64,000 nucleotides of DNA from Antedon mediterranea (lineage: Eukaryota > Animalia > Echinodermata): NCBI RefSeq assembly GCF_964355755.1, contig NC_092678.1:9378422-9442421 (forward strand). The letters run 5' to 3'. Below the pieces are notes generated by a model that made no database searches, was not told the origin of the DNA, and was given only the letters and a program-made list of their open reading frames with translations. Positions 6,741 to 50,970 of this stretch are shown one piece after another. The translations under genes and the position numbers were made by a program. Position 1 is the first letter of the stretch. Every line of letters begins with the position of its first letter.

Positions 6741-6858
6741 CAGGGAAGAGTTAAATTACATGGAAAACTCACGAGCCGTTGAGGCGTGTTAATGCAATTA
6801 AATCGCTATTGTTCTCTATTGTTTTGTGAATAAACTAACTTCCCCTTCAGTCCCATAC

Positions 6859-7615
6859 GGTGACTACTTCTTCGCATGCAGCTAAAGTAAAATGACGTCA
6901 CGTTAAAGCGTGTCGTCACAGAATCTCATGCATATGCAAAAGTTGTTTTGTTTCTGCTTCTTGTGCGCTCATGATTTTACTAAATGTTTTCAGAGTGATT
7001 AATGATGGTGCGATCTGTGGTACAGAAAATAATCCGATATTGCTCCAGATAACAAAGAAGCAGATTAAATATAGTTTTTTATTCGACCCATTTGGCTTAG
7101 ATGCCTAGCCCTAGAAAGACTTTCTATGATACCTACTCACTAGCGGCCTAACTAAAGACAAGTAAAATACAGTATACACTACCCACTATCAGGCCATCCA
7201 TATCCTCCCCTTCATCGTTACCGCGTGGCATTGTGCAGATACTAACCCAGCATACTAGCCCACCCACCCTAGCTCTCAGGTATGCACTGCGCTGCCACTA
7301 GACAGTAGGAGGCCTAGCCTATTTCAGCATTTGAAAATACATACTAATATTGTACATTTATTATTATTTTTTATTTGCACTGGAAGTATCTAGGTTCTCC
7401 TGTCATGTTAAAATTAAAGTATATTATTTATTATCCTCAGCAGTGAAAACAATTATATTTTGTTGTATATTTTCGATAAATCTCGCGTCGCGTGTGTGTG
7501 GTGTGGTGGAAAAAACTCTCAGCAAGTTTGCTTCATTAATATGCATGAGACTCTGTGACGACCCACTTTAACGTGACGTCATTTTACTTTAGCTGCATGC
7601 GAAGAAGTAGTCACC
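6859..7615. mobile_element. MITE with ~77-bp TIRs and 9-bp TSD (Mutator- or Merlin-like), nested in the P element
   Basis: TIR GGTGACTACTTCTTCGCATGCAGCTAAAGTAAAATGACGTCACGTTAAAG, first 50 bp perfect (6859-6935 and 7539-7615). TSD GTCCCATAC at 6850-6858 and 7616-7624. No credible ORF. Confidence 0.88.
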
Positions 7616-8276
7616 GTCCCATACGCGCGGCACCGCCAATTACTGAATATGCTGCCACCAATGTGTAGATTGGCATTAGACTTGTTACCAGTCGTTTTTT
7701 TTTCAGATGTGCTTTTTGGTTTTTTAAAATAAAATAAGTGGTTTAACACTTAACGACTGATTTGAGACTATTTTGCACACGTTACACAAGCGTTTCCATT
7801 TAAAAAAATGTGTATTTTTACAAAGAAACACGCTTTTTAGGTGGATTTTCGGTAAGTATGCAATGGCCTTTTACGAAATGTATCGTCTTTTATATCAGCA
7901 TTTTGATACATATGCCTAAAAGTGCCTAATGTCTAGCTCAGATATGTGAAACCAATAACATCTATATATATTGTGGTTCCGTTTTTATTTGCGACCAATT
8001 CCGACCAAATACCAAAAATAAAAGATTTCTGAACCATCTTTACTCAGTTTTAGAGACTAAGATCGGCGGCGAGATGCTGGTAAGCTCCGCCCAGATAGAA
8101 GCTGTTGCTAGGCCTATCGGCCACCTATTGCTATTCTGTCAGGCAACCTGTTTTAGTTTTTCAATTGTTAAATAAGTCAAAAATACCAGGCTAACATAAA
8201 TGAAAGTTCTAGACCTAGGCCCCTAATTAATTAATTAATACTGTATATAATAATGTTTCCTTTTTTTCATCCACAG

Positions 8277-8452
8277 TTTCTTCATTTGTTGACATGGCCA
8301 AGATATTCCTTTCACAGAAGAAGCCTGATGGTACAAGACGGATTGTGTACTTTTTCCGTGAGAAAAACAACCAGGATGCTCTAGAAAACTATTTCAGTAT
8401 AGAAAGGAGTTGCCTTGGGAGATGGGAAAATCTGACAGTCACAACTTATTAG
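8277..8452 (+). pseudogene. P-element/THAP9-type transposase C-terminal RNase H exon remnant
   Basis: After a pyrimidine-rich CAG acceptor (8274-8276) the frame reads SFVDMAKIFLSQKKPDGTRRIVYFFREKNNQDALENYFSIERSCLGRWENLTVTTY*. This matches the P transposase Y..x.QD.LE.xF..xR..GG...NPT motif. It is shorter than the ORF-track cutoff. Confidence 0.78.
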
Positions 8453-9937
8453 TTATTTTAAATTGATACTTGTTTTGTAAATCTGTTGATTCAGCCATTT
8501 GAAGCAGATAAAGAATGTCACGGAACAAAATATATTTCAGTACTTACGAAGAATCTCTTTTTTTTACTCTGGTATTGATAAACATTATGACATCATGTAA
8601 CAATTTTAATAAAAAATTGTTTTGTAAATAAAGTATATTCTAAATTGTATGTTGGTTTGACTAAAAACAAAACACATAATTTGATGAATACATACTTTGA
8701 AATATACCTTTATTGACATGATTAAACAGTACTGATTTTTATACAAAATAAATTTACAACTCCAACCTTAAACTTTTTTTGTCTTTTGCTTTTATTTTAT
8801 TATTTGTTAAGTTACACCAGTGTGTGATAATACTCTGTTTGATATTGGAATTACACATTCCCTTTAGCGACAAAAACCTCTCCATTTCTAAATCTAAGTT
8901 TCTAAAAAACAAATTAATACACATCATCTTTTATGTGAAAAGCACCCCCTCCCCCTTGAACGTCACTTCAACCAGTCATTGGTGTAGTCTATAGGAAAGA
9001 ATTAGTTTCTTCTATACTTTTGACCTCCCAGCACAATAAAGTTCACATAAAATCATAATCTGTCCACTCATTATCGAACACATCAATTATCTCTAAAAGC
9101 TCCATGGCCTCACCAACATCCATTTCACTTGTATGTATTGTTATACTATAGTATTCACACAATGATCCTAAAAAAATAAGAAATATGTTTTATTAATTTG
9201 GATCTCTTAATTTTTATTATGTAAAACTGATAATACAATGCAGAATTATTTTCAGGCAGGGAAGACCTCTGGGCCTGGCCTTAGACCTATGTAGGCTACC
9301 GGTACATGCAACTGGCGCGCACAGGAGATACTTTTAATGGCCGAGTAGCCTACAAATACACTCTTATTGTTAAAACAGGATCAGGCTAATTTAGTTTGGT
9401 AAGCATATCAATTCTAAATAGGCCTAGGTAGGTAGCAAGAAGAGAAGATTGTAGGCCTAGCCTAGTAGTAGTTGAGTAGGGCCTATTTTAGGCTAAAGTA
9501 ACTAGGCTAGCCTAGGGCCAGCCTAGCTAGGAGTGCCAATACATTCTTACTATCTAGGGCCTAGGCCTACTAGCCCTAGATTGAAGTAGGACCTGGTGTA
9601 GCAAGTAGGCCTAGCCTATTACATATACTTGAAATGTGCGTACGGAAATTTTCTAAAAACGGAAAATACAAATACGACGACGACGACTACGTCGCGATAT
9701 ATATCGAAAAAGTTTAATGCGTCAGGTTACCAAGGGGGCGGTTCGACGAAGACGTCATCAGTAGTGTGTTGTTGCATGCCGTCACCGACCGGAAAACAAT
9801 CGCTTCTGGGCATGCGCAAAGCAATTACTTCGTCTTGAGCGAACATCCGTTGATTATGTAATCGAATCGGCGGTGCCGCGCGTTGTAACGTTTGATGTAA
9901 GGTCCGTGAGTTTTCCATGTAATTTAACTCTTCCCTG

Positions 9938-10916
9938 GTGAGAGAGAGATAAGCGAGAGAGAGAGATATCAGCTAGAGGGATCAGCGAGATAGAGAGAGA
10001 GATCTGCAAGAGGAAGATCATCGAGAGAGAGAAAGAGAGAGATCGATCAGTGAGAGAGAGATTAACGAGAGATATCAGCAAGATAGAGATCAGCGAGAGA
10101 GAGATCAGCAACAGAGAGAGAGAGAGAGATCAGCGAGAGAGAGATCAGCGAGAGATAGATCAGCGAGAGATAGATAGAGATCAGTGACAGAAAGATCAGA
10201 GAGAGAGAAATCAACGGAGGAGAGATCAGCGAGAGAGAGACATCAGTGAGAGAGAGATAAGCGGGAGAGAGATCAGCGAGAGAGAGATCAGTGAGAGAGA
10301 GATTAGCGATAGAGAGATCAGCATGAGAGAGATCAGCGAGATAGAGAGAGAGATCAGTGAGAGAGAAAAATAAGCGAGAGGGAGAGAGAGATCAGCTAGA
10401 GGGATCAGCGAGATAGAGAGAGAGATCTGCAAGAGGGAGACCATCGAGAGAGAGAGAGAAAGAGAGAGATATTAGTGAGAGCGAGAATAACGAGAGAGAT
10501 CAGCAAGAGGGAGAGAGAGATCAGCAAGAGAGAGAGATCGGTGAGAGAGAGAGATCAGCGATGGAGAGATCAGCGAGAGAGAGAGTGATCAGCGAGAGAG
10601 AGATCAGCGAGGGAGAGATCAGCGAGAGAGATAGAAAGATCAGCAGGAGATATAGAAAGATCTGCGAGAGAGAGAGAGAGAGATCAGCAAGAGAGAGATC
10701 AGCTAGAGAGAGATCAGCAAGATAGATCAACAAGAGAGAGATATCAGCAACAGAGAGATATCAGCGAGAGAAAGATCAGCGAGAGAGAGATCAGTGAGAA
10801 AGAAAGAGAAGCGAGAGAGAGAGAGAGAGAGAGATCAGCGAGAAAGAGAGATCAGCTAGAGAGATCAGCGAGATAGAGAGAGAAATCAGCGAAAGAGAGA
10901 AAGAGAGAGAGATCAT

Positions 10917-30421: not shown

Positions 30422-32734
30422 GTTTACTTGTTTACTTGTTTCCGGAGCTTAGCAATGCTGGGTCCGGATTCGAGGCTAGGCTATGCCTATAAGCCCCTCT
30501 TGATAATTGATAATCAACTCTTGAATATGGCGCAAATTTAAGAGGGTGGTTGGACCATGCCCGTTCAAGACCGGACTTAAATTGATTGGTTGATCTTGAA
30601 GCTACTACATCCTCCGATAACGAATTCCATAATATAATAGCTTTTCGACCAAATGAGTCTGTCATCCAATTTGTGCGTGAGAACTTTTATTTAAATTTTA
30701 ATTTAAAAGAATGACCACGTGTTCTAACATGTTCATCACGCTCAAAAAAAGAATCAGCAGAAATACTATCCACTCCATGTAAAATTTTTAAAATCTGTAT
30801 CAAATGAGCTCTTTGCCTTCTGTATGCGAGAGTAGGTAGGTTGAGAATTTTCAGCCTTTCTGAATAATGTAAATGACGAATGGAAAAAATAAGCTTGGTG
30901 GCACGTTCTTGGACTTTTTCCAATAGGTCTTCCTCCTTGCAATGTAGCGAGTTAAAAACAACGTTGCAGTATTCTAAGGTCGGACGAATAATAGCTTTAT
31001 ATAAACGAAGAAACCCATCCATATTTAAAAACTTGAAAGCTCGATATACCATGCCCAACTTCCGATTTGCCCTCATTGCTACATCTGCCACATGTACATT
31101 AAAAACAAGTTTAGAGTCAATAGTAACACCGAGGTCTTTTTCATGATCAACTTCATTCAATAAGAAACCACGCATGGCATACAGATGTTTGTTGTTTTTC
31201 TTCCCAAAGTGCATTACTTTGCACTTACCCTCGTTAAAAGGTAATTGCAATTTTTCAGACCAGTCACATGCTTTCTCTAAATCTTCTTGTAAAACTTGAG
31301 CATCATTCACAGTGTTAACTACTCTATACAATTTAGTATCATCTGCAAACATGCGTACAGAGGAAGAAATAACAGAAGGTAAATCATTTATAAACATAAT
31401 GAAAAGAACAGGTCCAACAACGCTTCCTTGCGGGATACCACTACGAACATCAGCCCAATCTGAAACACATCCATTGACACTAACCCGTTGTTGTCTATCG
31501 TTAAGAAATTCTTGAAACCAGTTTAGAAGTTTACCTCTAATACCCAATGCACTCATTTTCAGAAGGAGTCTATGATGAGGCACACTATCGAAAGCCTTCT
31601 TGTAGTCAAGGTAGATACAATCAAAACAATCCTGATTATCAAAATAAGAAAACCAGTTTTCAAGAACATCAAGTAATTGTAAAGCACAGGAACGACCTTG
31701 CCGGAAACCAAATTGCTCATAACAAATAAGTGAGTGATGTTCAAAAAAGTCCAATAATTCCTTCCTGATAATTCTCTCCATAATTTTACCAACTACCGAA
31801 GTTAAACTCACAGGTCTATAGTTGCTTGGGTCAGACTTCACTCCTTTTTTAAAAATCGGTACCACTGTAGCCCGTTTCCAACTATTAGGGACGGCTCCTT
31901 CTTGAAACAATTTCGTAAAAATAATATGGAGGGGATAGCAAATGATATCCTTTAGTTCGACTAAGATGCGTGGGTGAATACCATCAGGTCGACCAGCAGT
32001 TTTAGTAATATTCAACATTGATAAAATATTGAGATTTCGTCACAAGGAAAGTCAACTTGAGATAAAAAAAAATCCTCTGAAATGACATCAACAGCCGGTA
32101 CATTCGAACAATTTTCATCGAGAAATACACTACTAAAAAACGTGTTTAGCAAATCAGCCTTATCCTTGTCATCAGACACATGCCTTCCATTACTATCAGT
32201 TAAGTTGGGAATACCAGACTTTATATTGATCTGAGAAGTGAGATACCTCCAAAAAGACTTTTCATTAGATTTGATCTCAATTGCTATTTTATTTTCGAAG
32301 TCAGATTTACTACATCGAATCAGATCTACTGTTTGATTTCTTACTTGGACAAACTTCGACCAATTTGCTAACACACATACTTTTTGTTTTCTCTTGGCCT
32401 TTACATACTGTTTCCAACATTTATTTTTTTTGTCAATCTGCTTATCAATTTTTTTGTTCATCCAAAGGGGTTTTCTTCCGTGACAAACCTTCCTCATTGG
32501 GATACACTCATCAATATTCTTCGCAAGTACATGCTCAAACTCGTCCCACGATTGAATATCTGATTTATCATTGAAAACCACATCCCGATCTACCAAACCA
32601 ATTTTCTCGCGCAAGAAATCATAGTTACCATGCCTGTAACTTCGAATATTTGGTTCAATTCTGTCATCTCTTACAAGATCCAATGAAAAATGTAACATCA
32701 TATGGTCGCTTTTACCCAGTGGTGGAGACTGCAT
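30422..32734 (-). mobile_element. 5'-truncated CR1-clade LINE; ORF2 from the end of the endonuclease through RT, broken near 32015 and 30687
   Basis: PPLGKSDH (end of APE domain), GPDGIHPR-like motif, NYRPVSLTS, QFGFR, YLDYKKAFDSVPH, SGIPQGSVVGP, MFADD, EKDLGV, RTRGHSFKL. 3' tandem tail (AACAAGTA)2 at 30422-30440. Confidence 0.95.
30687..32018 (-). pseudogene. CR1 ORF2 reverse transcriptase segment (443 aa)
   Basis: Full set of non-LTR RT motifs, separated from the neighbouring ORF2 segments by frame disruptions. Confidence 0.92.
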
Positions 32735-32926
32735 AATTTTTTTTTTCTTTTTGTGGGATCATCCCACTTTTATTTCAAACAAACATCATATAAAAACAGG
32801 AATATATATTTATGCAATTGCAATTTTGTTATCTGTTTGATTACTAATGATTTTTGTATTTGCTTCTATACCAATTATCATTATTCACCATAGTTATTTT
32901 CTATTTTGTATACATGTCATCATCAA

Positions 32927-36646: not shown

Positions 36647-38590
36647 AATTTTAAAATTCTAATTTTGATCCTTTTATTTTTTGAATAACTAGTTACTATG
36701 GCTCTATAAGATGATGTTAGCACAATATATTTGCATAAATGGCAATATTATAGCATAATTTTAGAATTTTAAACAAAGGAAATTTTGACCATTTTTCGGA
36801 AAAAAAATCCTATGGTCCCCCGAAGGGAAATTGTTTGATAAATGGCCAAATTTCGACCTTTTATTTCTTGACATAACTTGTTACTATGGCTCTATAAGAT
36901 GATGTTAACACAATATATGCCCATAAATGGCAATATTATAGCCTAATTATAGAATTTTGAAAATTGAAAATTTTTGCAATTTTTCGAAAAAATTCCTATG
37001 GTCCACCGCAGGGAAATTTTTGCAAAAATGGCCAAACTTCAAACCTTTTATTAGCCGCAGGGAAATTTTTTTCGCTTTTCTGTAGTTTTTGAACTGTTTT
37101 GATGTACAGAAAAGTTTTAAAGTACATTACTTTTTGAAAGTTCATTTATTTCTTAGAGCACGCAACTTATTGTTGTTGGCGTTGTTTTTTTGACATAACT
37201 AGTTACTATGCCTCTATAAGATGATGTTAACACAATATATGTGCATAAATGGCATTATTATATTCTAATTATTGATTTTTAAAAGGTGGAAATTTTGGTC
37301 GTTTTCGACCCTTTTATATTTTGACATAAGTAGTTGCTGTTGCTCTATAAGATAATGTTAGCACAATGTATGTGCATAAATGGCAATACTATAGCCTAAT
37401 TATAGAATTTTAAAAATTGGAAATTTTTTCCATTTTTCGAAAACAATCGTATGGTCCCCCGCAGGGAAATTGTCGCAAAAATGGCGAAATTTCAAACCTT
37501 TTATTTTTTTAAATAACTAATTACTATGGCTCTATAAGTTGATGTTTACACAACATATGTGCATAAATGGCAATATTATAGTCTAATTATTGAATTTTAC
37601 AAAGGTTGAAATTTTGGTCATTTTTCGAAAAATAGCCAAATTTCGACCCTTATATTTTTTGACATAACTAGTTACTCTGGCTGTATAAGATGATGTTAGC
37701 ACAATATATTTGCAGAAATGGCAATATTATAGCATAATTTTCGAATTTTAAAAAGTGTAAATTTTCCCAATTTTTCGAAAAAAAATCTTATGGTCCCCTG
37801 CGGGGAAATTTTCGATGCCCAAATTTCGACCCTTTTATTTTTTGACATAACTAGTTACCGATGGCTCTATAAGATGATGCTAACACAATATATTTGCATA
37901 AATACCAATATAATAGCATAATTATTGAATTTTAAAAAGTGAAAATTTTGGCCATTTTTCGAAAAAATTCTTATTTTTTTGCTGGGAAACTTTCGCAAAA
38001 ATGGCCAAATTTCAAACCTTTTATTTTTTAACATAACTAGTTACTATGGCTTTTTTTAAGATGATGTTAGCACAATATATTAGCATAAATGGCAATATTA
38101 TAGCATACTTTATTAATTTTAAACAATAGAAATTTTGACAATTTTTCGAAAAAAAATCCTATGGTCCTCCGTAGTGAAATTTTTCGAAAAATGGTCAAAT
38201 TTCGACCCTTTTATTTTTTAGTCGCGTGAACGCGACTCAATAGTTCACTATGTCTGTCGGTCGGTCTGTCGGTCTGTCGGTCTGTCTGTCGGTCCGGTAT
38301 CACTAACTGTTTTGATGTACAGACAAGTTTTAAAGTACATTACTTTTTGAAAGTTCATTTTTTTCTGAGAGCACGCGACTTATGGCTGTTGGCCTTGTTT
38401 ACATAACTAGTTACTATGGCTCTATAAGATGATGTTAGGACAATATATTTGCATAAATGGCAATATTATAGCATAATTTTCAAATTTTTTAAAAAGTGGA
38501 AATTTTTGCAATTTTTCGAAAAAATTACACAGGAAAATTTTCGAAAAATTGCAAATTTCAACCCTTTTTATTTTTTGAGATAACTAGTTA
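36647..38590 (-). repeat. ~187-bp satellite in inverted orientation, with two more DINE-like inserts (37070-37186 partial; 38219-38398)
   Basis: Reverse complement of the 23.9-29.4 kb monomers. Hairpin AGTCGCGT-GA-ACGCGACT at 38220-38237 followed by (GTCG/GTCT)n. Confidence 0.93.
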
Positions 38591-38617
38591 AGTAGTATAT
38601 GGAGTACTTCAGTCCAA

Positions 38618-38925
38618 AAAGGAATGTCATACCCCCAGGGCATATTTCATATTTCTATTGTTTAATTTCCAGGTATTGTAATAATAATTAGTGAAAGGTC
38701 ATTCTTTGTACCAGACCGGAAAGGAATGTCATATCCCCAGGGTATATATTATATTTTCTATTGTTTAATTTCCTGTTATTGTAATATTAATTAGCGAAAG
38801 GTCATTCTTTGTTAGAGAAGGGGGTTTGTTATTTTTGGCGGGGTTTTCGTTTTGGCCTGGGTTATAATTGTAGTTGGTGATGAATTTGTATTTTAAATAT
38901 ATTAGTGAAGGTAGTTCTTTGTTTG
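38618..38925 (+). repeat. Subterminal direct repeats (~103 bp, two copies plus a partial third)
   Basis: AAGGAATGTCATA.CCCCAGGG...TAG.GAAAGGTCATTCTTTGT near 38619 and 38721; partial TTAGTGAAGGTAGTTCTTTGT near 38902. Confidence 0.85.
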
Positions 38926-39147
38926 AGGATTGCTATTGTTATTTTTAGGCGGTTTGACCATTGCATAGGTCACCTTTGTTTAGTATATCCTAATTTCTTT
39001 TGTTCATTGTTCTTTTTGTTTGGTACAATAGTTTTGTTTTTGATATTTTAGAGCCGTTTCTTTTTAGACATTGTAAGAAGAGGGACTGCTTTTTGTAACC
39101 TTTCCAGTTGTTTCGTCTATTTTAACGTAGAGTTACAGTATTTCGCT

Positions 39148-39699
39148 ATGTCTGGAAGTATAGATTTTTCGTTAGGTAGCTGTGTAGATACAGTTATAAT
39201 TATTAGCGATGATGAGGAGACTGTTGTTACAGGTAACGATATCGGTGATCGGTACATGCGGACCAATGAGGGTGTACCCGTCGGTGTTGTTGAAGGAGTT
39301 GAGAGGGGTAGCCGGGCTACAAGTTGTATATTTACGTACGTAGATGAGGTAGAGAGAGAATTTTTATTGAAATTGGAATATTTAGCCAGAGAAGTGTTTG
39401 TTTCTCAAATGTTAAACATGTGCTGGATGTTAAGCAAAGCGGCTTGTTATGGTTGCGAATTTGATAGGCCTGGTCAAAAAGATCATGACTTCTGCTGTAT
39501 GAAATCTCCAGAAGAACAGATTGACTATTTTTATAGGGAGGTTCTGGATAAAGAGTATGTTACAGACGATACCGTGTACAGTGAGTTGAATAAGTACGAG
39601 GAATATTCATTACCACGGTATAGACATTTTGTTTACTTTCTCGTAAATACCTTGACTAATTCAGAGAACCTGTATAAGTTATTGTGTGAGGATATCTAA
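39148..39699 (+). CDS. 183-aa acidic hypothetical protein with CxxC-x4-PxQxxH-xxCC putative metal-binding motif
   Basis: Intact ATG-to-TAA ORF in AT-rich DNA with non-repetitive composition; motif ACYGCEFDRPGQKDHDFCC. Confidence 0.72.
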   Translation: MSGSIDFSLGSCVDTVIIISDDEETVVTGNDIGDRYMRTNEGVPVGVVEGVERGSRATSCIFTYVDEVEREFLLKLEYLAREVFVSQMLNMCWMLSKAACYGCEFDRPGQKDHDFCCMKSPEEQIDYFYREVLDKEYVTDDTVYSELNKYEEYSLPRYRHFVYFLVNTLTNSENLYKLLCEDI

Positions 39700-39855
39700 A
39701 ATGTGTTTCGCACGTGCCACGGAAAAACAATTGACCGGAAAACAAACAATTAACAATGCTTTAATCCGCACGCGTTGTAGGGAGACAATTGACAGGAAAA
39801 ACAATTAATATCGCTTTAGGCTAATTACTGTTAGGGCTACCTCCTTACTGAGCTG

Positions 39856-39886
39856 TATATATATCGGACCTGATTCAAACGCAGTT
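39856..39886 (+). promoter_or_regulatory. TATA box and initiator-like CAGT upstream of the PC4-AlkB gene
   Basis: TATATATAT at 39856-39864, CAGT 26 nt downstream at 39882, ATG at 39901. A duplicated ACAATTGAC.GGAAAA motif lies at ~39727 and ~39785. Confidence 0.5.
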
Positions 39887-39900
39887 TTAAAGTACCAACG

Positions 39901-41595
39901 ATGACTTCTACCTCCTCGAAGTTATTGGATCCTAGAAAATTTTTCAACGGTCAAACGAACGATTTGAGTAAAGCAGCGAAGCCGTCAACAAGTAAAAAAT
40001 CATTTCACTCTGCCTCAGGAATGAGCGCTAGGGATTATGCCGAAATGACCGGTGGTGAACCAAAGATTACAATAACTTCAACGAATCGGATTTTTCTGTC
40101 TGAAAAACGCCATGTAGTGGCCCAGCGCTGGGGTGAAGTTGTTTATGTATGCCTCAGAGAATTTTATCAAACGGAAGAAAATTGTGCTTTCAAACCTGGA
40201 CCTCTAGGTATTAATTTACCCGTTCTGCTGTGGCAAAAACTTTTTACCAATATTGATTTAATTCTTCAAGTCCTAGACGACTTGCAAAGAGACATTAACT
40301 TGGTGGAGGCAGTAAGAATCCCACTTTCGGACATACTACATGTGGTAGTTAGTAGCTGGAAAGAAGAGCAGTTTGTATGTATTCGCCATTGTTACCAGGC
40401 CGAAGAAGGAGGCGAGTTTAAACCCGGCAAAAAAGGTATAAACCTTCCAAAGAGACAGTGGTACAAGTTAATTGAACAACACGGTGAAATTCAAAAGATG
40501 ATTGAAGAGGTTGATAATGATAATGTGGTTACCGTCGATGGTGGTGGTGACGAAAACGATAACGGAGGACGTTTATTCAATTCAGAGCAACAATTGCTAT
40601 CCCCTGATGGGTTATCTGTGCAAAAGATAACAGGGGAAAATTTAGATTGTGATTACCTTCAACTTCTTGGTAAAGAAACAGCCGATACATTGTTTAAAAA
40701 ATGTGAGGAAGAGATTGACTATTTTACCGGTGATCTTGCAAAGGTGAAAGTGTACGGAAAGTGGTTTAATATTCCTAGAAAACAGGTTAGTTCCATTATT
40801 TTTTTTTATCCGTGGTTTTGTATTAATGACTTGTTAATTACTTGTAGGCCTATATCGTTTCCTTTGTTTTTCTTTATTTACCGCTGGGTAGCTATAGGTG
40901 TAATTTACTCTTTTACTGTAAATGATTTTATTTGGGCGTGTTCATTTACATCTCGCCAAATAAGATTCTTAAATTACTATGTAATGTATGGTTTTCCCCT
41001 CTGCAGGTTTCGTTTGGCGATTCGGGCTTAACTTACAAATATTCAGGCAATACAGTACCAGCTTTACCGTGGCCACCATTCCTGAAAGATCTCCGCAATC
41101 TTTTAAAAACGGTTACAGGACATTATTTCAATTTTGTCTTGGTCAATCGGTAAATATTCTTGTTTATTATTTTGTTTGTTTTAATTCTATTGTGTTATTT
41201 TACTTACATACATCCCCCCTCCCCCAATTGGGTGTTTTTTTTTTAATCTCATGTTAAAATACTTTATTTTCTATTGTATTTTGTCGTTACTCTATAGATA
41301 TGCTACTGGCAGTGATTACATTGGCGAACACAAAGATGATGAAAAAGACATGAATCACTTTAGTCTAATCGCCTCTGTATCATTGGGGCAAACACGTATG
41401 TTTAGATTTCGACATGGTGATGCGCGAGGTAAGAGTCCCAAAAGAATAATTGAGCCAGTAACTGTTGATCTTAAACACGGTACATTATTAATGATGAATT
41501 ATCCCACTAATGAGTACTGGTACCATTCACTGCCTAAAAATCAATCCATCAAGCTACCAAGAATAAATCTTACGTTTAGAGATATTAAAAGATGA
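39901..41595 (+). CDS. Tandem PC4/Sub1 ssDNA-binding domains fused to an ALKBH2-like Fe(II)/2OG dioxygenase; exons 39901-40785, 41007-41149, 41298-41595 (441 aa)
   Basis: PC4 repeats: RHVVAQRWGEVVYVCLREFY...FKPGPLGINL...W and HVVVSSWKEEQFVCIRHCY...FKPGKKGINL...QW. ALKBH2-like part: LDCDY...EEEIDYFTGDLAKVKVYGKW...PRKQ|VSFGDSGLTYKYSG...FNFVLVNR|Y...IGEHKDDE...IASVSLG...GTLLMMNYPTNEYWYHSLP...RINLTFR. GT-AG introns 40786-41006 (phase 0) and 41150-41297 (phase 2) give one 1326-nt frame. Confidence 0.92.
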
Positions 41596-41737
41596 GAGAA
41601 ATTTTACGCAAACATTAGGCCTAACAGTCTTTAATAGTGATTACAGATCTCAAGAACATCAACTGTTCATGATCTGTTATCATATAGTGTAATAGTACCA
41701 GTTAAATTACTTTTGTGATGATATTTCTACAAATGGT

Positions 41738-41942
41738 TGTATTATTGTATTGAAGTTAATTCACTTAGATATAGGGCTAATTCCATTGATCGTTAATAAT
41801 AATGTGATTGTTTGTCATTGTGTGGATAATGATTAACTTTACGAAACAAATAGCTGTATTATTGTATTGAAATTCACTTAGATCTATACCTAATTCCATT
41901 GATCGTTAATATTCATGTGATTGTTTCCCATTGTGTGGATAA
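41738..41942 (+). repeat. Two ~90-bp direct repeats (offset ~117) downstream of the AlkB gene
   Basis: TGTATTATTGTATTGAA...CTAATTCCATTGATCGTTAATA...CATTGTGTGGATAA occurs twice. Confidence 0.85.
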
Positions 41943-43646
41943 AAATTAAATAATCTCTTAAAAGTAAATTGTATTGTATTTCTAATTGTTATAAATATAT
42001 GTAACAGTTTCTTATGTTTTTAACAAGTGTGCAAGTTTTTCTTTAAAGCGTTTTAACCGTTTAGTTAGTAATTTCAAGAGAAACAAGTACTTGAAACGGA
42101 TAAATGACGTCGTAACGTAGGAAACGGACTGGTAGATTAAAAGAAACGTTATAGGCCTAATAACACTAATAATAACAAACATATATTTCGTACATATTCT
42201 AAATATGTGTGATTAATATTATTACAATAAAGACCATGTAGATCTACAGTGGTTTTACTGTAAGTGGTATTGTAAATAAATTTTGAATTCAATGGTGAGA
42301 AATAACAGATGTCTGCGTATTATTTAATATTACTTTTATCATAATTGCAAACACAGGTCGATCATAATTTGAAGGCAGAAAGACGTTTTGGTTGCCAATT
42401 GTATTTTCTTTACACTTAACACATTTTAACAGAAAAACAGAAAAGCTAGACATTCAACCGGACCCCAAACATTGAAATTTGTTTACAAGCAGGTTATTTC
42501 CATTAGCTATTCTAAGGCCTACTTTTTTTTCTACATGTTTATCTTTCGACTATTTTTTAAAAACTTTTTTTATGAATCTTCCGCTGTTTCGTTAGCAATT
42601 TTACAGGCCTGTGTCTTCGCTCTGTAGGCTTAACCTTATAACGACATACCTTTTAACGGTTCTTTTTAAATGTTCTCTTATTGATGGTTACCTATAGCTC
42701 TCTCACATCCCTTAATCTAGCACCATTTTATGAAATATTCCTCAGTAAGGGGTTTATTACTGACGCTAGGTATCATCGACAGGGAATATTAGACAAAACA
42801 TGACGTCACTATTTTTAAAAGGTTTTCTCATTCAAGAACAGCTGACGTCAATGAAGAATACGTTACAACACGATAACTACCGGACAGCAGCAAAAAACAT
42901 CAACCAATCACAAATCTGAGCTACTAGTTAAATAATAAATAAACGAAACAAAGACAAAAGAAAAGGAAATACACCAAACAAATCATTTTCGTCTCGAAGT
43001 TATATTAACGTAAATTTTTCCTTCACAAAATCACAGGAGACGCGTTTAACGTTTCCAATCACATTATTCAACTCATCAGGTGTAATATCTTTACACAAAT
43101 CCTTTATATCTTTACTTTTTTTCTTACCAGCTCATATCAAACATGAATATTACTCTAAAGGATGTATACTCAATGTACGATAACCCCACCCCCCTTTTTT
43201 TTTTTTTTAAAGTCTGCATAGCGGCACGAGAAAACAATTGATAATGGGGATAAAAAGTTTGTCTTACATTGTTATACAGTAACCTGTGTTTTTCTTTGTT
43301 TACACCATCTCATTGTTTATAATTATGTATGTTAATGTCGATAGTGTTTCTCTAGTACAGTTTATTACTTGTTTATACTCGTAAAGTTGGCAGGCCTCCA
43401 TGTTGTTGGTATATTTTGTAAAAATTGTATTTATGTTTACTTTTTAAAAATCGTTTTATTTGCATTTTATCTCCTCCTGGTTAAAATGAGTGTGATGTTG
43501 CTTAAAAAGTTAACAAGTATAACCACTAAAACGGTTCATTACCTGTAGGAAATCATCAACATTGTAACATACTGTAAACAATACAAATTAGTTTCACAAA
43601 TTATTTAAACAATAACACTAACAAATTATTAGAATTTAAGAAAATA

Positions 43647-43925
43647 AAGGTGTACAGATTTAATTTCGATAAAAAAAGTGTACAAAAATAACTTTACAAA
43701 AAATGTACAGAATAAATTAACAACAACAAAAAATCACACATTAAACTGATTCTTATAAAGGTGTACAGTGTACATTGGCCACAGACATTCTTAAAACGAG
43801 GTGTACAGCTTTTATTTAAAAAAAAAGTATACAAAAATAATTTTACAAAAAGTGTATAGAATAAATTTACAAAAAAAGTTCACACATTAAACTAATGCTT
43901 ATAAAAGTGTATAGACCTAGTGTAC
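43647..43925 (+). repeat. Two ~150-bp direct repeats rich in GTGTACA
   Basis: AGGTGTACAG...ACAAAAATAA.TTTACAAAAA...GAATAAATT...CACACATTAAACT at ~43648 and ~43799. Confidence 0.8.
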
Positions 43926-44603
43926 ATGTCGATGTGTACATGTAACGTGGCATTACCATTAAGAAACAAATACAAACCAAACACTTAACAGCTAAAACAG
44001 CATAGCGATCGTTTTCGTACGTAAAACAATACCTCTAGCAGGTATATCAACTTTAGTATTTTAAGTATAGGGCCTACACGTGACAAACACACACACACCC
44101 TCTTGAATTGTAGGTACAGGCCTTTTGCCGTTCGTAATTCAAACTGTTCGGAAAATTGAAGTTAATATTCTGAGATTAGGCCTATAGTCTATGATTGCAT
44201 TCTGCCTTCCCTCTCAGGAGCTTAGACTTATCAACGGTCTAAAAGAGCTGTAATGCAGGATGCGAAACATAAAAGTTTATTAATAAACAGTATATTATAA
44301 CGATAAAGAAACGAATGTATGATACACCAATATAACAGTACAATAACTGATTAACTGAAGACTTGAAGTCTACTGTATTCCTACAATCATTCAAGTAGAC
44401 ATTGTTTGTTGAGTGTATGATACTTTCTCCAAAGAGAATTCGAACGATGTGTTTTTTCGGACGTGTTTCTACGGTTATGTCGATAATAATTTAAAAAAAT
44501 AAAAACAAAAACAAAACAAAAAACGAACAGCCTACTAACTTCCAAAAAATCAATACCTAAATAAGCTGAACCTAACCCACTAATTACTAATCTCTTCCAT
44601 ACA

Positions 44604-44810
44604 TCAAAATCGGCCGAAAATGATCTGAACATTGAAAAGTGGACACGGTCGTCTGTTCTTCTTTTCTGTTTCCACGGCTTGTGACATCCTCGTTGGTGAT
44701 AAAGTCGTGCGGTTTACACACTTATGATGACCACATCGCATAACATGTTCAGGGAACTTATTTTTCAACTCTCTGATACAATGTTTAAATACAAGTGGAC
44801 TGGAAACCAT
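44604..44810 (-). pseudogene. Degenerate C3HC4 RING-finger-like ORF (68 aa)
   Basis: F-x2-C-x14-CGH-x2-C-x2-R-x21-CP-x-F has RING spacing. The three missing cysteines are TTT, CGC and TTC, each one substitution from TGY. Confidence 0.45.
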
Positions 44811-44831
44811 TTAGGAATAGGGTTTTCTAAT

Positions 44832-45430
44832 AATAAAAGTTGTGTAAAACTTTAGTTATGGTCAAGAGGAATTGGTCAAGACTTGGAGTAAATGGTCAAA
44901 GCCGGTGGCAAATGGTCAAGACCGAGAGAAAAATTAATGTACACCATTTTATAAGTTTATAGTCAATTATTGTGTTAACATTCATTTATGAATAAATCTG
45001 TATATGTATTCAATAATAAAAAAAAGAATAACTTTCTTATGCTTAATATCATGAATAACATATCTTTAGTGGTTAAGGTAATATATTATTTCTCTGTATA
45101 CTGCCGTCACACATATAGATAAAGAGAGACTGTCCATTAATAAAAGTTGTGTAAAACTTTAGTTATGGTCAAGGGGATTGGTCAAGACTTGAAGTAAATG
45201 GTCGAGACTTGGAGTAAATGGTCGAGACCGGGGGAAAATGGTCAAGACAGGGAGAAAATGGTCAAGACAGGGAGAAAAATTAATGTATACAATTTTATAA
45301 GTTTATAGTCACTTATTGTGTTAAATTTCATTTATGATTAAACCTGTATACGTATTCAATAATAAAAAATTAATTTTCCTTCACTTAATATCATGAATAA
45401 TATATCTTTAGTGGTTAAGGTATTATATTA
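44832..45430 (+). repeat. ~300-bp tandem duplication containing a ~20-bp ATGGTCAAGAC minisatellite
   Basis: AATAAAAGTTGTGTAAAACTTTAGTTATGGTCAAG at 44832 and 45139; the second copy has more internal units. Confidence 0.88.
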
Positions 45431-45955
45431 TTTTTTATTTTATTTTATTCAATCAAAACCAACAGCGATAAATACCGCCACTAACAGGTTTGAAACATAA
45501 AACAATACAACAGCAAAAACGGTTAACAATAAAATACAGATAAAATATATATATATATATAAAAAACATAGATTGGCATGCCATAAAAAATTTCAATTAA
45601 AACAGGTTATGCAGACTGTTCAAGAAGTGAACACATCATCGTCCTCTTAAAATAACCAAGTCTATCATTAAAAATATCGATATGATTGCTATTTAGATTA
45701 TTAAATGTATAAGGTAGTCTATGAAAAAGTCCCCTCTTAGTACAGTCGACACGGCTAAAAGGAATATGCAATAAATGTCTATTTCGTGTACGACCAGGAA
45801 CATTTAAACTAAATAGTGAAATTAATGAACAGTCATATTTAGAATTTAAAATATTATATAAAAAAACCATATCAGATATCGTTCGACGATTGCTGACAGA
45901 ATCAATGGAAAAGGCAAAATTAACACAGTTATAAGACAGGAATCGATTATTGACA
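45431..45955 (-). mobile_element. LINE 3' end fragment (CR1-like ORF2 C-terminus, 3' UTR and A-rich tail)
   Basis: RRTISDMVFLYNILNSKYDC...FSLNVPGRTRNRHLLHIP...RLPYTFN is typical of ORF2 tails. (TAAAA)n tail at 45431-45449. Confidence 0.78.
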
Positions 45956-47503
45956 TTAATTAATTTGATTAATGACAGGCGTTTGTTTGGGTTTGGGTTT
46001 ATGTAGGTCAGGTATATTTATTCCCATTTTCTTGGCGTATGACCTTGTTACTGGTCTGCAAGTAGATGTGTTTGTAATCGGGTTAAGAGATTCAGTCTCT
46101 GTAATATTAAATGCAATGGGTACAACTTGATCAATTTCGGAATCGTCGTCACGAGGGGCTCGGGAGAGAAAATCTGCTAAAACTAATTCAGTTCCTTTCT
46201 TATAACCAATTTGGAAAATGTATCCGGACAATCGTAATATTAGTTTCTGTAAACGGGGTGTACATGGCTGATCTCTTGAATTCCAAATTTGTACAATTGC
46301 TGAGTGGTCTACGAATGCATCAAATTCGCAACCCTTTAGTAAATGTCGAAATGCTGAAACGTTAATGTAAAGTCCAAATAACTCTAATTCTGTGACGCTA
46401 TATCGTTGACAGGCTTGTGGTAAGATTTTGGAATAATAACCTATTATGTGTTCTTTACCGTTTACTGTTTGTGTTAAATATGAACCTGTTGCGGTTCTTG
46501 AAGTGTCGCTATATAGCGTAAATCTACTTTCTTTTCTAGGCATTTGAAGAGTTGGTGGTTTAACCATTAAGTGTTTAATTTCGTCAAATGCTTTCAGGTG
46601 TTCAGTAGACCAAACACATTTTCGGCGTTTACTTGCGAGTGTGTGTAACGGACGTAAAATTGATTGTATTTGAGGGAAAAAATGGGATACATAATTTACT
46701 GCACCAATAAATCGTTTAGTTTCTTTATGGGTTCGTGGGACTGGCAAATTTCGGATAGCTGCACACCTGTCGCCTAATGGTGTGATACATGCGTGTCCTG
46801 AAGAATTAATCAGGATGGTGTGTCCCATATATTGCACTTTATTCTTGAATAACTTACATTTCTTTGGACAAATTCTAAAACCATTTAATTGTAGGGCTAG
46901 TAAAACGGAAACGAGGTGCTGCTTATGAGCGAATTTGTCTTGGCTAAATAAAATAATATCATCATGATGGGCGATACAGAATTCTCTAGAATTTGGGATT
47001 TCATTTAAAATTTCGTCAATCTTTGCTTGAAATATACCTGGCGAAACGTTTAATCCTTGTGCTAATCTCTTATAATAATAATGCTTTCCACCATGATATG
47101 AAGCTATACCTGTGTATTGTTGGGCATGTTTGGCTAATGGTACACAGTGGAACGCTGATTTCAAATCAATTACGCTAAGAATCTGTGCATTAGCGTTACC
47201 TATTGTTTTCAAAGTTTCGGCCAATAATGGGAATGGGTGATTAATACGTTTTATCCTGGAATTTAGATAGCGAAAGTCTGTGACAACTCTTTTATCTTTT
47301 GAATTTTTCTTTGAAACAAGAAGGACAGGGGAAGTATACGATTGGTGTCCTACTGCTAAGATTCCTAGTTTGACTAATTTGTTCAATTCGGCCTCAATAA
47401 CATGTTTGTCTTTGTCTGTCGCGAAGTATGTCGAATAAAAATGGTTCATCGTTAGAGAGGTGTATGTCAGCTTTGAAGTTTGGGCAGCTAGATAGTTCAC
47501 CAT
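45956..47503 (-). pseudogene. pol: Gypsy pol RT and RNase H segment
   Basis: SPVLLVSKK, RVVTDFRYLN, IDLKSAF, RLAQGL..SP, HHDD, YMGH, LYSDTS, YSVTELE, VDH, LADFLSR. Out of frame with the protease segment near 47430-47445. Confidence 0.92.
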
Positions 47504-48452
47504 AAAGTGAAAATGCGTTTCTGTTTTGTTGTAAGGTTTTATACAAATCTTCTTTTTCTCTATGTGTTAAAACGCTGTCTGTTAAATCAACTTGTTTTCT
47601 GATTATTTCTTCCTCGGTTAAAGATAGCAATGGGTCTGTACGTTCTAAATGTGGGTACTTGTTTGCGTTGTCATTGGTCAACTTTATTCTATCAATTGGT
47701 AGGTCGTTAGTAACTGTTACAAGGTTGGTTAAGTGAAGGCTCGCGATAGGTTGATGTGTATTTAGAGATACGTTTCTGTTTGTGTTGTTAGTGATATCAA
47801 TGTTGGTTTCTCCTCTATGTAATTTTACTAACATATCTGATGGACAAAGTTTTGAAATATGGGTGGTTGCATGTAGAACAACATCAGAATTGCGTACAAA
47901 GTCGGGAACCCTTCCTTTTAATTTAACTGTTTTAGTATCACCGGGTTTAAGAAAAATCTTGTAGACAGGACGAAAGCTAAAAATCTTTGGTCTAATGCGA
48001 AATGTGTTTTCCTTAAAATTTAAAGTACCGTCGAGTTCAGACAATGTTTCGGTTCCAAGTATCAGGTCAATACCTGTCAAATTTTTAACGATTAATGCTG
48101 AAATTTTAAATTTGTGTCCTTGGATAAATAATTCGAATTGCACTAAGTGGTTGGCATATAAGAAGTCACCGTTACCTAATCGAAATTTAGTTGTGTTCAC
48201 TTTAACTGGCTTTAAACGCGATAAATAAAGTGAGGAATTAACGTACGATTGTGAGATTATAGTTCTAGTTGAACCACTGTCAAATAAAGTTAAAACATTT
48301 CTACCATCTGGTAAATTTCCTTTAACGTAATTTCTGTCGTTAAGTAACAAATCAATATTATCTGAATTCCCTAAGTATTTTGCCTTAAAATTGTCGTATT
48401 TAGTATGGGGGGCCAGATTATAGGCGGCATCTAGTCCCCTTTTTAAAAATCC
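47394..48452 (-). pseudogene. pol: Gypsy pol aspartic protease segment
   Basis: LFDSGS catalytic motif and DLILG. The frame stays open upstream to the gag stop in the -1 frame. Confidence 0.88.
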
Positions 48453-49402
48453 TGCTGGTGGCTAGGGTAATAATTGTTTGACTGTTGGTATGGGTATGGC
48501 GGGGGATAATTTCCGTAAGAGCGGTTTTGTTGTCGGCAGTGCCTTGCTATGTGGCCTGGTTTCCCGCAGTAATAACAGGTTGGGGGAGGTTGTCTATATC
48601 TTGGGGTCGGTGGGGTCTGGAATCGGGGTTTGTAGGGGCTTGGGCTTCGGTTTCGTCTTGGGGTATAATTTCGGGTGGGGGAACGTGAGCGTCGAGTATC
48701 ATCATTAAGGGATCCTTTTGTTGTGGCTATATCTAACTTAAGAGAATTTATCTCATGTTGGAGCGATTCGAGACTATTATCTGTTTCCTTATTGATGTTG
48801 AATGAAACTTCCCGTGTGGAATCATCTATGGAAAGGTCAAGGTAATTTTGTGTGCTATTTACGATATTGTCAATAGTGGCATCGATTGGGGTGGACATGG
48901 CTACAGCTGCTCTACATTTTGGTGGAAGGGTCGAAATAAATTTATTCTTTATCTGCTGGTCAGCGTATCCAATTCTGTCTGCGGCTTGTTTGATTTTGGT
49001 TAAGTGTTTTTCGGCGTTGTCGCCAGTGGTGTAAGTAATTGAATCGTATTCTCTTATGTGCGCATAGATTGATTTGTTTTTACTAAAAATGTTGATGAAT
49101 TGGGTTTTTAAAGATTCCAGTGAATCGAACTGCTTTCCCTCAATCCAGAGTCTAGCTTGGCCCTGAAGGCTACGTTTAAAAATACTTATTACATTAATTA
49201 ATTGGGCATTGTTTACAGGGTTTTCTAAAGTGTGGGCCTCAAGGTAGTCGGTAAACGATAAGTAATGTGCACTACATTGGTCGTGATCGGTTATGGAACT
49301 GTCATATCTTTTGGGAAGGAAATCGGTTTGTCTTAGGTGGGGCACGGGGTGAGGATTGACGGGCTCATTTAAAATTACTTCGTTATCAACAACGTCGACC
49401 AT
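48443..49402 (-). CDS. gag: Gypsy Gag with CCHC zinc knuckle (319 aa)
   Basis: SLQGQARLW and LKTQF capsid-like motifs, RSxSP-rich linker, CYYCGKPGHIARHC. Confidence 0.92.
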   Translation of the reverse strand: MVDVVDNEVILNEPVNPHPVPHLRQTDFLPKRYDSSITDHDQCSAHYLSFTDYLEAHTLENPVNNAQLINVISIFKRSLQGQARLWIEGKQFDSLESLKTQFINIFSKNKSIYAHIREYDSITYTTGDNAEKHLTKIKQAADRIGYADQQIKNKFISTLPPKCRAAVAMSTPIDATIDNIVNSTQNYLDLSIDDSTREVSFNINKETDNSLESLQHEINSLKLDIATTKGSLNDDTRRSRSPTRNYTPRRNRSPSPYKPRFQTPPTPRYRQPPPTCYYCGKPGHIARHCRQQNRSYGNYPPPYPYQQSNNYYPSHQQDF

Positions 49403-49796
49403 ACTTTATAATATTAGTTAATCAAAATATCAAAAACAATTTAGTGTATATATATGTAAACTCTCACTTTTCAATCAAGGTTACAAATCAAAAATCAAAA
49501 TGGTTTTGACTTACCCCAAATGCTTCGGATCCAATTAAAAATGAATTAAAGGAATGCAAAAAGTGTTCAAAAATGTTTAAATGTTCAAACAATGAATTAA
49601 AAAAATGTTAAAAGTGTTCATCAATGTTCAAATTTTCAAACAACGAATTAAAAAAAATGCGAAAGGTGTTCATCAATGTTCAAAATGGTCAAAAAAGTAA
49701 ATGTTAAAAAAAACGATCGAAAAAAAACGGCGTGAAGTTGAAAGTGTCCAAACGAAACAGTTCTTGTCCGCTTGCTTCTGTTTTGATTCTGCTTGG

Positions 49797-50000
49797 GTCT
49801 TCCTCGATTATCTTCTTTGTCTTTATCCAATGGTTATAATTTGATAAAATTTCTGCTTGTCTCGATGTCATTCAAATATAATTTCAGCTTGTCTTTTGTG
49901 TCTTCCTCGACTATCTTCTTTGTCTTCATCCAATGGTAATAATTTGATAAAATTTCTGCTTGTCTCGATCTCATTCAAATATAATTTCAGCTTGTCTTTT
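49797..50000 (-). repeat. ~102-bp tandem direct repeat in the gypsy 5' UTR
   Basis: TCTTCCTCGA.TATCTTCTTTGTCTT.ATCCAATGGT...CAGCTTGTCTTTT occurs twice. Confidence 0.88.
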
Positions 50001-50119
50001 GAGTCAAAGTAAATTTCTGGTTTTCTCCTTTCAAACAAATATGGTTATTTTTGTCTTCGTCTTCGTCTTCGTGTCTTGTTAAGTGTTTATTTCTTGTTTT
50101 CTCACTCTGTTCCTTATGA

Positions 50120-50137
50120 AATTTGGGTCTTCCACCA
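50120..50137 (-). promoter_or_regulatory. Primer-binding site (TGGTGGAAGACC...)
   Basis: TGG immediately follows the LTR terminal CA; the tRNA cannot be identified. Confidence 0.7.
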
Positions 50138-50749
50138 TGTCATATAATGTTGCGTTGTTGAGGTACTAATGAATACTCTTACTCGCTTGACTGTCGTAAC
50201 ACATATATTGTTTATTCAGTATAATACTTCAGTACAATATACAACTATAAGTATAGATAAGGAACGGAGGATCAATGATGCTGTCGGTGAGGTGTGAAGT
50301 GTGTTAGTCTGCTTCTGAAGAAGTGGCTGTAAGGTGTGTGCTCCGTGACATGGCTGTAAGGTGTGTCTGAGCCCTTCTGAAACTTGGGAGTATATTGGCC
50401 CTCGGTTCATTTGCATATGTCACTACGTAATCTATGAGGGTAACGATTGGTCCTAAGTTGATCCAGGGGTGTTTAAGTGGGAGTGATTGATCTTATCTGG
50501 GGAGGTTACAATGATGAATTGGCCCTGTCGAATCTCTGCTTAAAACTGTCAATATCTAATTGTTTTACGATGGGAACAGTCGCAAAGTTAAGCTAAGTGT
50601 TTTCTTTAGGGATTCTATTATAAACTAAATGGTCATTAAAACATCTGGACAAACTCTCCTCTGGACTTTCTGGGTCAAGTTTGTGAACCTATTTGAATTC
50701 CGATACAAAGGTCAATTTCTTAAATATAAAAGTATATCGTTATATTACA
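50138..50749 (-). repeat. 5' LTR of the gypsy element (612 bp)
   Basis: TGTAATATAA...TTATATGACA inverted termini, AATAAA at 50211-50216 (minus), adjacent PBS, sharp junction to the satellite at 50750. Confidence 0.88.
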
Positions 50750-50970
50750 CTATCTCTCTCTCGCTGATCTATCTCTCTCTCTAGCTGATCTATCTCTCTC
50801 TCTCGCTGATCTTTCTCCCTCTCGCTGATCTATCTCTCTCTCGCTGATCTATTTCTCTCTCGCTGATCTATCTCTCTCTCGCTGATCTCTCTCTCTCGCG
50901 GATCTCTCTCTCTCTTGCTGATCTCTCTCTCGCTGATCTCTATCTCTCTCTAGCTGATCTCTCTCTCGCT

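Follow-up and report, generated by a model that had tools for sequence, protein, structure and literature searches.

We analyzed a 64,000-nucleotide stretch of the genome of the crinoid Antedon mediterranea (the window; contig NC_092678.1, positions 9,378,422 to 9,442,421 of the forward strand). The segment at 38591-45430 of the window carries two genes, one encoding a small protein, ORF1, whose relatives occur with Maverick core genes, and one in which tandem PC4/Sub1 domains are fused to the DNA-repair dioxygenase ALKBH2. An earlier note on this DNA had read the PC4-AlkB cassette as cargo at the end of a Maverick/Polinton-like element inserted in satellite DNA. Our analysis indicates that the segment is probably the left terminus of a Maverick, with its accessory genes, although a fragment and not demonstrated to be an intact element. 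Its features are the following.

36686-38590, no strand assigned: left flank, a host satellite array of ~185-bp monomers that contains a short interspersed insert and breaks off after TAACTAGTTA.
38591-38596, plus strand: AGTAGT, an (AGT)2 motif of the type usually found at Maverick ends (PMC8097293), and the likely left terminus.
38618-38812, plus strand: 103-bp subterminal tandem repeat (1.9 copies, 90%), likely within a left terminal inverted repeat (TIR) whose partner is absent.
39148-39699, plus strand: ORF1, 183 aa, a probable Maverick accessory protein of the CxGCxxxxPxQxxHxxC family with a predicted helical metal-binding domain.
39852-39890, plus strand: TATA-like box ~40 nt 5' of the ATG, a possible promoter (sequence, motif census).
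39901-40785, plus strand: exon 1 of the fusion gene, with a variable N-terminus, two PC4/Sub1 repeats, a linker and the start of the ALKBH2 domain with its F1 hairpin.
40786-41006, plus strand: intron 1, GT-AG, 221 nt, its start shared with gene model P0020 on another contig.
41007-41149, plus strand: exon 2, within the ALKBH2 domain.
41298-41595, plus strand: exon 3, with the HxD...H iron ligands, the arginines that bind 2-oxoglutarate (2OG) and the stop.
41596-45430, no strand assigned: rest of the segment, AT-rich and free of core-gene remnants; it includes three short duplications and motifs resembling promoters.

Both genes lie on the plus strand and are 201 bp apart, in line with the earlier description of two co-oriented genes separated by ~200 bp. 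The fusion gene has three exons and two GT-AG introns, encodes 441 aa without an internal stop, and matches Pfam PC4 twice and 2OG-FeII_Oxy_2 once; its exon 1 is identical to an annotated A. mediterranea protein. The several short duplications mentioned in the note were located downstream of this gene, at 41729-41949, 43648-43914 and 44831-45433. The public model of the window locus, P0001, exits exon 3 at an internal donor (41430) and ends in a distant exon (43130-43180), dropping the last iron ligand, yet the genomic exon 3 is open to the normal stop. Six models (P0003, P0005, P0012, P0016, P0019 and P0020) start with ~35 extra residues that found no window match in the three models tested, the 5' end of the window copy being different or shorter.

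The left boundary is sharp. The palindrome TAACTAGTTA occupies 38581-38590 and forms the last letters of the satellite, with AGTAGT directly after the junction at 38590/38591. In the window, the next 60 nt after 20 other exact TAACTAGTTA monomers are satellite (mean identity 66%), whereas those after this one have 26% identity to it, with a gapped score matched by 165 of 200 shuffles. The satellite is thus interrupted at the motif, as the note had it, and the ~100-bp subterminal repeats it described correspond to the tandem repeat at 38618-38812, of period 103. At any single site, AGTAGT is expected by chance with a probability of ~4e-4. The motif is also found within 3 satellite monomers, through one base change and in another register, so that alone it is no proof of a terminus. 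In Mavericks, (AGT)2//(ACT)2 is the commonest end, target-site duplications (TSDs) are of 6 bp, TIRs measure 46-1,447 bp, and accessory regions flank the core (PMC8097293). With (AGT)2 at a sharp boundary, as in Mavericks, in the one copy examined, AGTAGT is likely the true terminus of the element.

The association with Mavericks was assessed through the relatives of ORF1. Among 1.84 billion representative proteins, ORF1 had 41 matches at E<=0.001, and an alignment showed invariant C, G, Q, H and C residues common to ORF1 and 38 of them; alignment A1 leaves out P0028 and P0038 (repeat artefacts) and P0027 (internal duplication). Pfam has no family for these relatives, and a DFF40 match to ORF1 was rejected at 17 bits against a cut-off of 25. 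A degenerate pattern derived from the ORF1 motif yielded 47 metagenome loci, which were sorted by profile into 24 members (22 clear ones and two weaker ones that were added, L018 and L031) and 23 controls. Maverick core genes were found in 14 of the 24 member loci (13 of the 17 that are >=2 kb) versus none of the 23 controls. Their Pfam identities (rve+chromo, DNA_pol_B_2, Pox_A32 and Peptidase_C5) correspond to rve-plus-chromodomain integrases, a type B organellar/viral polymerase, A32-type ATPases and an adenovirus-type protease, the last with a weak match to S273R of African swine fever virus (ASFV). For a capsid candidate, the nearest Atlas clusters carry the double jelly-roll (DJR)-like PF21738 on 14-24% of their members (score 0.98), and a comparison with the PDB gave no match. 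PC4 lies beside or is fused to ORF1 relatives in L016, L018, L039, P0034 and P0069, and L039 has the gene order of the window, ORF1 then PC4. Near its terminus the segment therefore carries genes of Maverick accessory type, namely the ORF1 family and the PC4 domains seen in L016, L018 and L039. The assignment of ORF1 and PC4 to the Maverick accessory genes, evidence that the note did not have, supports well the Maverick/Polinton-like origin proposed there; we consider it very probable that the ORF1-PC4 cassette derives from a Maverick.

ORF1 may equal an unnamed "Adintoc" or "Oncoid" class of PMC8502044. Scans of IMG/VR with ORF1, alignment A1 and the motif pattern returned no member of the family, the single locus found being a non-member, and a scan with the PC4 region returned 3 weak loci only; the Atlas held no usable match for ORF1. 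The structure model of ORF1 is confident for residues 61-183, with no match in BFVD at E<=0.001 and a best Z in the PDB of 6.5, no more than background. A second small-protein family, CxGC...PGQxxHMxCxxGCLH, was seen in L005, L006, L013, L017, L028, L035, L042 and L044, with no Maverick core genes nearby. Separately, L031:1040-6258 (minus strand) is a Polinton-like locus with seemingly four tandem capsid-like open reading frames (ORFs) beside an integrase and a protease.

The fusion itself recurs in the genome. It forms a family of 17 annotated models on 7 contigs of 22-41 Mb, some perhaps isoforms of one locus, the evidence for dispersion being annotated protein models and at the protein level only. 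The family is thus multi-copy and dispersed, as expected of Mavericks. The closest plain ALKBH2, P0006 (268 aa), is on an eighth contig, and a second one, P0071, shares a contig with four fusion models. The segment is therefore not a single-copy stretch syntenic with the host ALKBH2 locus, a possibility that the earlier note had raised against its own proposal. P0020 runs on into the intron 1 sequence of the window, and the last 13 residues of P0004, also on another contig, are identical to window 42886-42924, which is non-coding; the remainder of the segment is shared with the P0004 copy at least up to ~42927, and the repeated unit reaches at least 1.3 kb past the fusion stop. Because both models end in non-coding window sequence, the repeated unit is intron-bearing genomic DNA, neither a retrocopy nor a single host locus. 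The order of accession numbers was dropped as a link between copies and core genes, as numbers from different contigs interleave. The copies fall into two subfamilies, A and B, with 94-99% identity within each over PC4, linker and AlkB. Between subfamilies, identity is 96% in AlkB, 83-87% in PC4, 73% in the linker and 53% in the N-terminus, a domain-wise pattern that suggests purifying selection. We regard it as likely that the fusion spread by Maverick transposition.

The origin of the AlkB domain was traced in a tree of 31 rows, which omits the partial models P0001, P0003, P0020 and P0021 and the near-duplicates P0016 and P0018. The 11 element rows form one clade (support 100/98), sister to the host P0006 (96/89), and this pair is nested with P0071 (95/94) and then with Anneissia, the other crinoid (100/100). 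The nesting within crinoid ALKBH2 dates the capture after the split from Anneissia, and the introns that were kept indicate capture at the DNA level. Element domains are 81-84% identical to the A. mediterranea ALKBH2 domain. P0071, the second host-type ALKBH2, which branches below the host/element pair, has a model in which the F1 hairpin is incomplete. With the whole fusion protein as query, 460 matches were obtained at E<=1e-40; among the best 120 of these, three carry PC4 and AlkB annotation together, all from A. mediterranea, and PC4 is absent from all 113 rows of other origin (proteins of 242-770 aa).

The element AlkB matches human ABH2 structures at E ~1e-71, and its fold is predicted confidently by AlphaFold2. 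It has the HxD...H, NxY and two C-terminal arginines of ALKBH2, and all 13 element models with a complete domain retain the catalytic residues. Its RKK loop reads KNQS, versus RKK in 67 of 104 other ALKBH2s; the loop is altered in crinoid host ALKBH2 too, which makes RKK typical and not defining, and the position of the domain inside the ALKBH2 tree identifies it as ALKBH2 despite the loss. The role of the RKK loop is contact with the opposite strand. The F1 hairpin, which sets duplex versus single-strand use in this family, ABH2 repairing both (PMC2965238), reads VKVYG against V99, V101, F102 and G103 of ALKBH2 and is of the hydrophobic, duplex-capable type; Y at this site is also found in 31 of 79 matched host ALKBH2s. 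The enzyme is likely to remove 1-methyladenine and 3-methylcytosine, as predicted from these residues.

This conservation bears on whether the AlkB domain matters to its carrier at all. It could be a neutral passenger taken by chance and conserved through recent amplification or gene conversion, and the many partial models among those annotated, together with the 13 of ~440 residues that separate the window copy from its nearest paralogue, would suit that history. However, the two parts are fused in frame and both introns are spliceable, the stem branch leading to the element clade measures 0.12 substitutions per site and yet all catalytic residues are kept, and conservation tracks domain boundaries, which makes a passenger very unlikely in our view.

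In the PC4 part, PF02229 matches two stretches (78 bits, cut-off 25). PC4 dimers bind single-stranded DNA (ssDNA) and melted DNA through F77, R86 and W89, the last being Y in many orthologues (PMC7549692, PMC4350104), and these DNA-stacking positions read W, R and Y in both repeats, whose strand-helix pattern is compatible with a two-fold (pseudo)dimer. Five PC4 genes have been reported in the bay scallop (PMC9223095), and some of them may, at a guess, be Maverick accessory genes. Of the ssDNA-protection and repair module envisaged in the earlier note, the first half fits the PC4 residues, but the AlkB is of ALKBH2 type with a duplex-repair hairpin. Since this duplex-capable hairpin was kept, a repair activity limited to ssDNA is unsupported.

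Unpaired DNA is the main site at which 1-methyladenine and 3-methylcytosine form, and both lesions block polymerases. Replication of Mavericks is believed to rely on a protein-primed, strand-displacing polymerase that does without PCNA. To our knowledge, Maverick replication has never been directly observed in animals. We propose that a Maverick acquired the ALKBH2 of its crinoid host as a genomic copy, which was joined to the C-terminal side of the tandem PC4 domains that the element already had. The two repeats would fold as a single-chain PC4 dimer and dock the enzyme on the displaced strands or bubbles of the element. They would thereby replace the host N-terminus, which in human ALKBH2 recruits the enzyme to PCNA forks (ABH2 binds PCNA through its APIM; PMC2965238), forks that a protein-primed polymerase would not use. 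Repair would then act on the single strands and the re-annealed duplex of the element genome. The other fusion copies would sit in full or non-autonomous Mavericks, the window copy having lost, or been parted from, its core genes at the junction with retroelements described below. On balance we lean, with reservations, towards this reading as a whole, including the repair by the element of its own DNA. The most specific form of the proposal, in which a recently active crinoid Maverick/adintovirus grafted a host ALKBH2 catalytic domain onto an ssDNA-binding PC4 pair and so retargeted repair from host forks to its own protein-primed, strand-displacing replication, is put forward tentatively.

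The same capture could have served a different end, with the enzyme removing DNMT-made 3-methylcytosine from a silenced integrated copy and PC4 guiding it to transcription bubbles. DNMT-made 3-methylcytosine is repaired by ALKB2, which co-occurs with DNMTs (PMC7343188), PC4 has a high affinity for melted DNA (PMC7549692), and a duplex-capable hairpin would be suited to the task. On the other hand, the observed/expected ratio of CpG is 0.92 across the segment versus 0.75 in a nearby long interspersed nuclear element (LINE), which gives no sign of methylation-driven decay, and two host ALKBH2 genes are already there for chromosomal DNA; we therefore hold counter-silencing to be quite improbable.

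Several observations weigh against the proposed self-repair by a Maverick or against steps in it. The queries came from six of the 14 core-positive loci, and 8 of the other 18 loci were positive; with query donors and several near-duplicates among them, the 24 member loci are not independent. A word-based search found no close ORF1 homologue annotated in A. mediterranea. Gene conversion is another possible source of the high AlkB identity, the bootstrap of the AlkB tree is not fully settled, AlphaFold2 gave the PC4 repeats a predicted local distance difference test (pLDDT) score of <50, and the ALKBH2-like F1 hairpin points to no clear switch to ssDNA. In crinoid host ALKBH2 no PCNA motif is obvious, which weakens the step in which the N-terminus is replaced. 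Finally, the window contains no inverted partner, ACTACT end or TSD, and no remnant of pPolB, integrase, ATPase, protease or capsid genes in its 64 kb.

The search for such remnants compared all ORFs of >=80 aa from the 24 member loci with the window by tblastn at E<=0.05. Outside ORF1 and PC4 no ORF matched, bar one match of 25 aa (E 0.033), so the window copy is without core genes and is classed as a Maverick-derived terminal fragment and not as an intact member. The reading of the PC4-AlkB cassette as cargo at a Maverick end is supported in part, for a terminal accessory region whose core genes, TIR partner and TSD are missing from the window. The TSD predicted in the note, TAGTTA, occurs 38 times in the window, and the occurrence at 42925 was rejected, with no inverted terminus before it and no satellite after. 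The RING-like remnant was not borne out: the stretch at 44607-44810 (minus strand) shows partial Cys/His spacing and matched nothing in Pfam or PHROG at E<=0.1, and the 25-aa match was rejected as support because the matched ORF has no RING. On the right, two retroelements stand in place of the rest of the element.

45430-45955, minus strand: 3' end of a LINE with an A-rich tail, interrupting the element; without a Pfam match, it encodes what we take to be the C-terminus of the reverse transcriptase (RT).
45956-50750, minus strand: Gypsy-type long terminal repeat (LTR) element with gag, protease and RT-RNase H, without integrase and with one LTR (~50140-50750); right-hand junction.

What lies at position 45430 is the A-rich LINE tail and no element end. 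The LINE 3' end is directly joined to the gypsy element, in which gag and pol lie in several frames and the second LTR is also absent, and GA-rich satellite then runs to the window end. The LINE/gypsy joint is a point of deletion or misassembly. Surroundings of rearranged satellite and retroelement DNA, and a window copy that lacks core genes, TIR partner and TSD, would also be expected if a dead Maverick fragment had given its PC4 exons to a duplicated host ALKBH2 and the chimera had spread by segmental duplication or another carrier, to become a host gene family. The introns were kept, and P0071 shows that ALKBH2 can duplicate without an element. Transposition nevertheless fits better with copies on 7 contigs in two subfamilies of 94-99% internal identity, and with a sharp (AGT)2 start in unrelated satellite followed by an intact ORF1, and we find a host family unlikely.

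Elsewhere in the window, a ~3.2-kb element with TIRs of >=36 bp (~6741-9940) is inserted in GA-rich satellite and itself harbors an element of ~760 bp (6860-7615) bounded by separate inverted ends of ~45 bp; both are likely non-autonomous DNA transposons. A LINE RT in two frames (30687-32758, minus strand; Pfam RVT_1) lies between oppositely oriented blocks of GA-rich and ~187-bp satellite.

If Maverick self-repair is the correct explanation, the fusion would be the first such repair enzyme from a Polinton and would indirectly point to replication of Polintons via long-lived exposed single strands. Because a conserved captured repair enzyme is joined to an ssDNA-binding module, a single purified protein would allow the strand-displacement model to be tested. 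The locus also documents, in a recent event that can be dated, how a virus-like element took up an intron-bearing host gene and joined it to one of its own. The ALKBH2 "expansion" in the A. mediterranea annotation is likely mobile-element cargo, and the CxGC...PxQxxHxxC family, not in Pfam, can serve to mark Maverick fragments that lack core genes.

Compared with host ALKBH2/ABH2, the element enzyme has the same HxD...H, NxY, two arginines and hydrophobic F1 hairpin, but differs in its PC4-PC4 N-terminus, its multiple dispersed copies and its KNQS in place of the RKK loop. Plant RNA viruses carry AlkB as well. Captured AlkB-family dioxygenases are likewise kept by an orchid Gypsy lineage, as an N6-methyladenosine (m6A) RNA demethylase (PMC9289625), and by giant viruses, the nucleocytoplasmic large DNA viruses (NCLDV), as 2OG-FeII_Oxy_2 genes (PMC10598087). 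These enzymes act on RNA or sit in giant viruses, and in the accessible text none is described as an ALKBH2 fused to PC4 or as borne by a Maverick.

The closest relatives of the segment are the Mavericks and adintoviruses of aquatic animals (Barreat and Katzourakis 2021, PMC8097293; Starrett et al. 2021, PMC8502044), with which it shares the (AGT)2 start, a terminal accessory region, a PC4/Sub1-like gene (MOSUB or SSDBP, as genes are labeled in adintovirus maps) and an ORF1 family found among core genes. Unlike them, the window copy is without core genes, TIR partner and TSD, and no AlkB label appears in the readable part of the supplement of PMC8502044. Intact vertebrate Mavericks have intronless genes, in contrast to the intron-bearing fusion. 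No PC4 or AlkB in Mavericks is mentioned in the accessible parts of PMC4738411, PMC11131425, PMC11662393 and 10.1101/2023.08.22.554363. Among the matches listed for Polinton, Maverick or adintovirus AlkB or PC4 and for crinoid genomes, a set that mostly leaves out subscription papers and Repbase, the PC4-ALKBH2 fusion is undescribed. The nematode Maverick with wasp and krma (Widen et al., 10.1101/2022.07.12.499685) similarly carries host-derived, intron-bearing cargo in a 2-5 kb region beside the TIR. The cargo of the window differs in that it is a DNA-repair enzyme, taken from the lineage of its own host without demonstrated horizontal transfer and joined in frame to an accessory protein already resident in the element. 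Host cargo and PC4-like genes are thus known from Mavericks, and what appears to be new is a captured host ALKBH2 fused to PC4.

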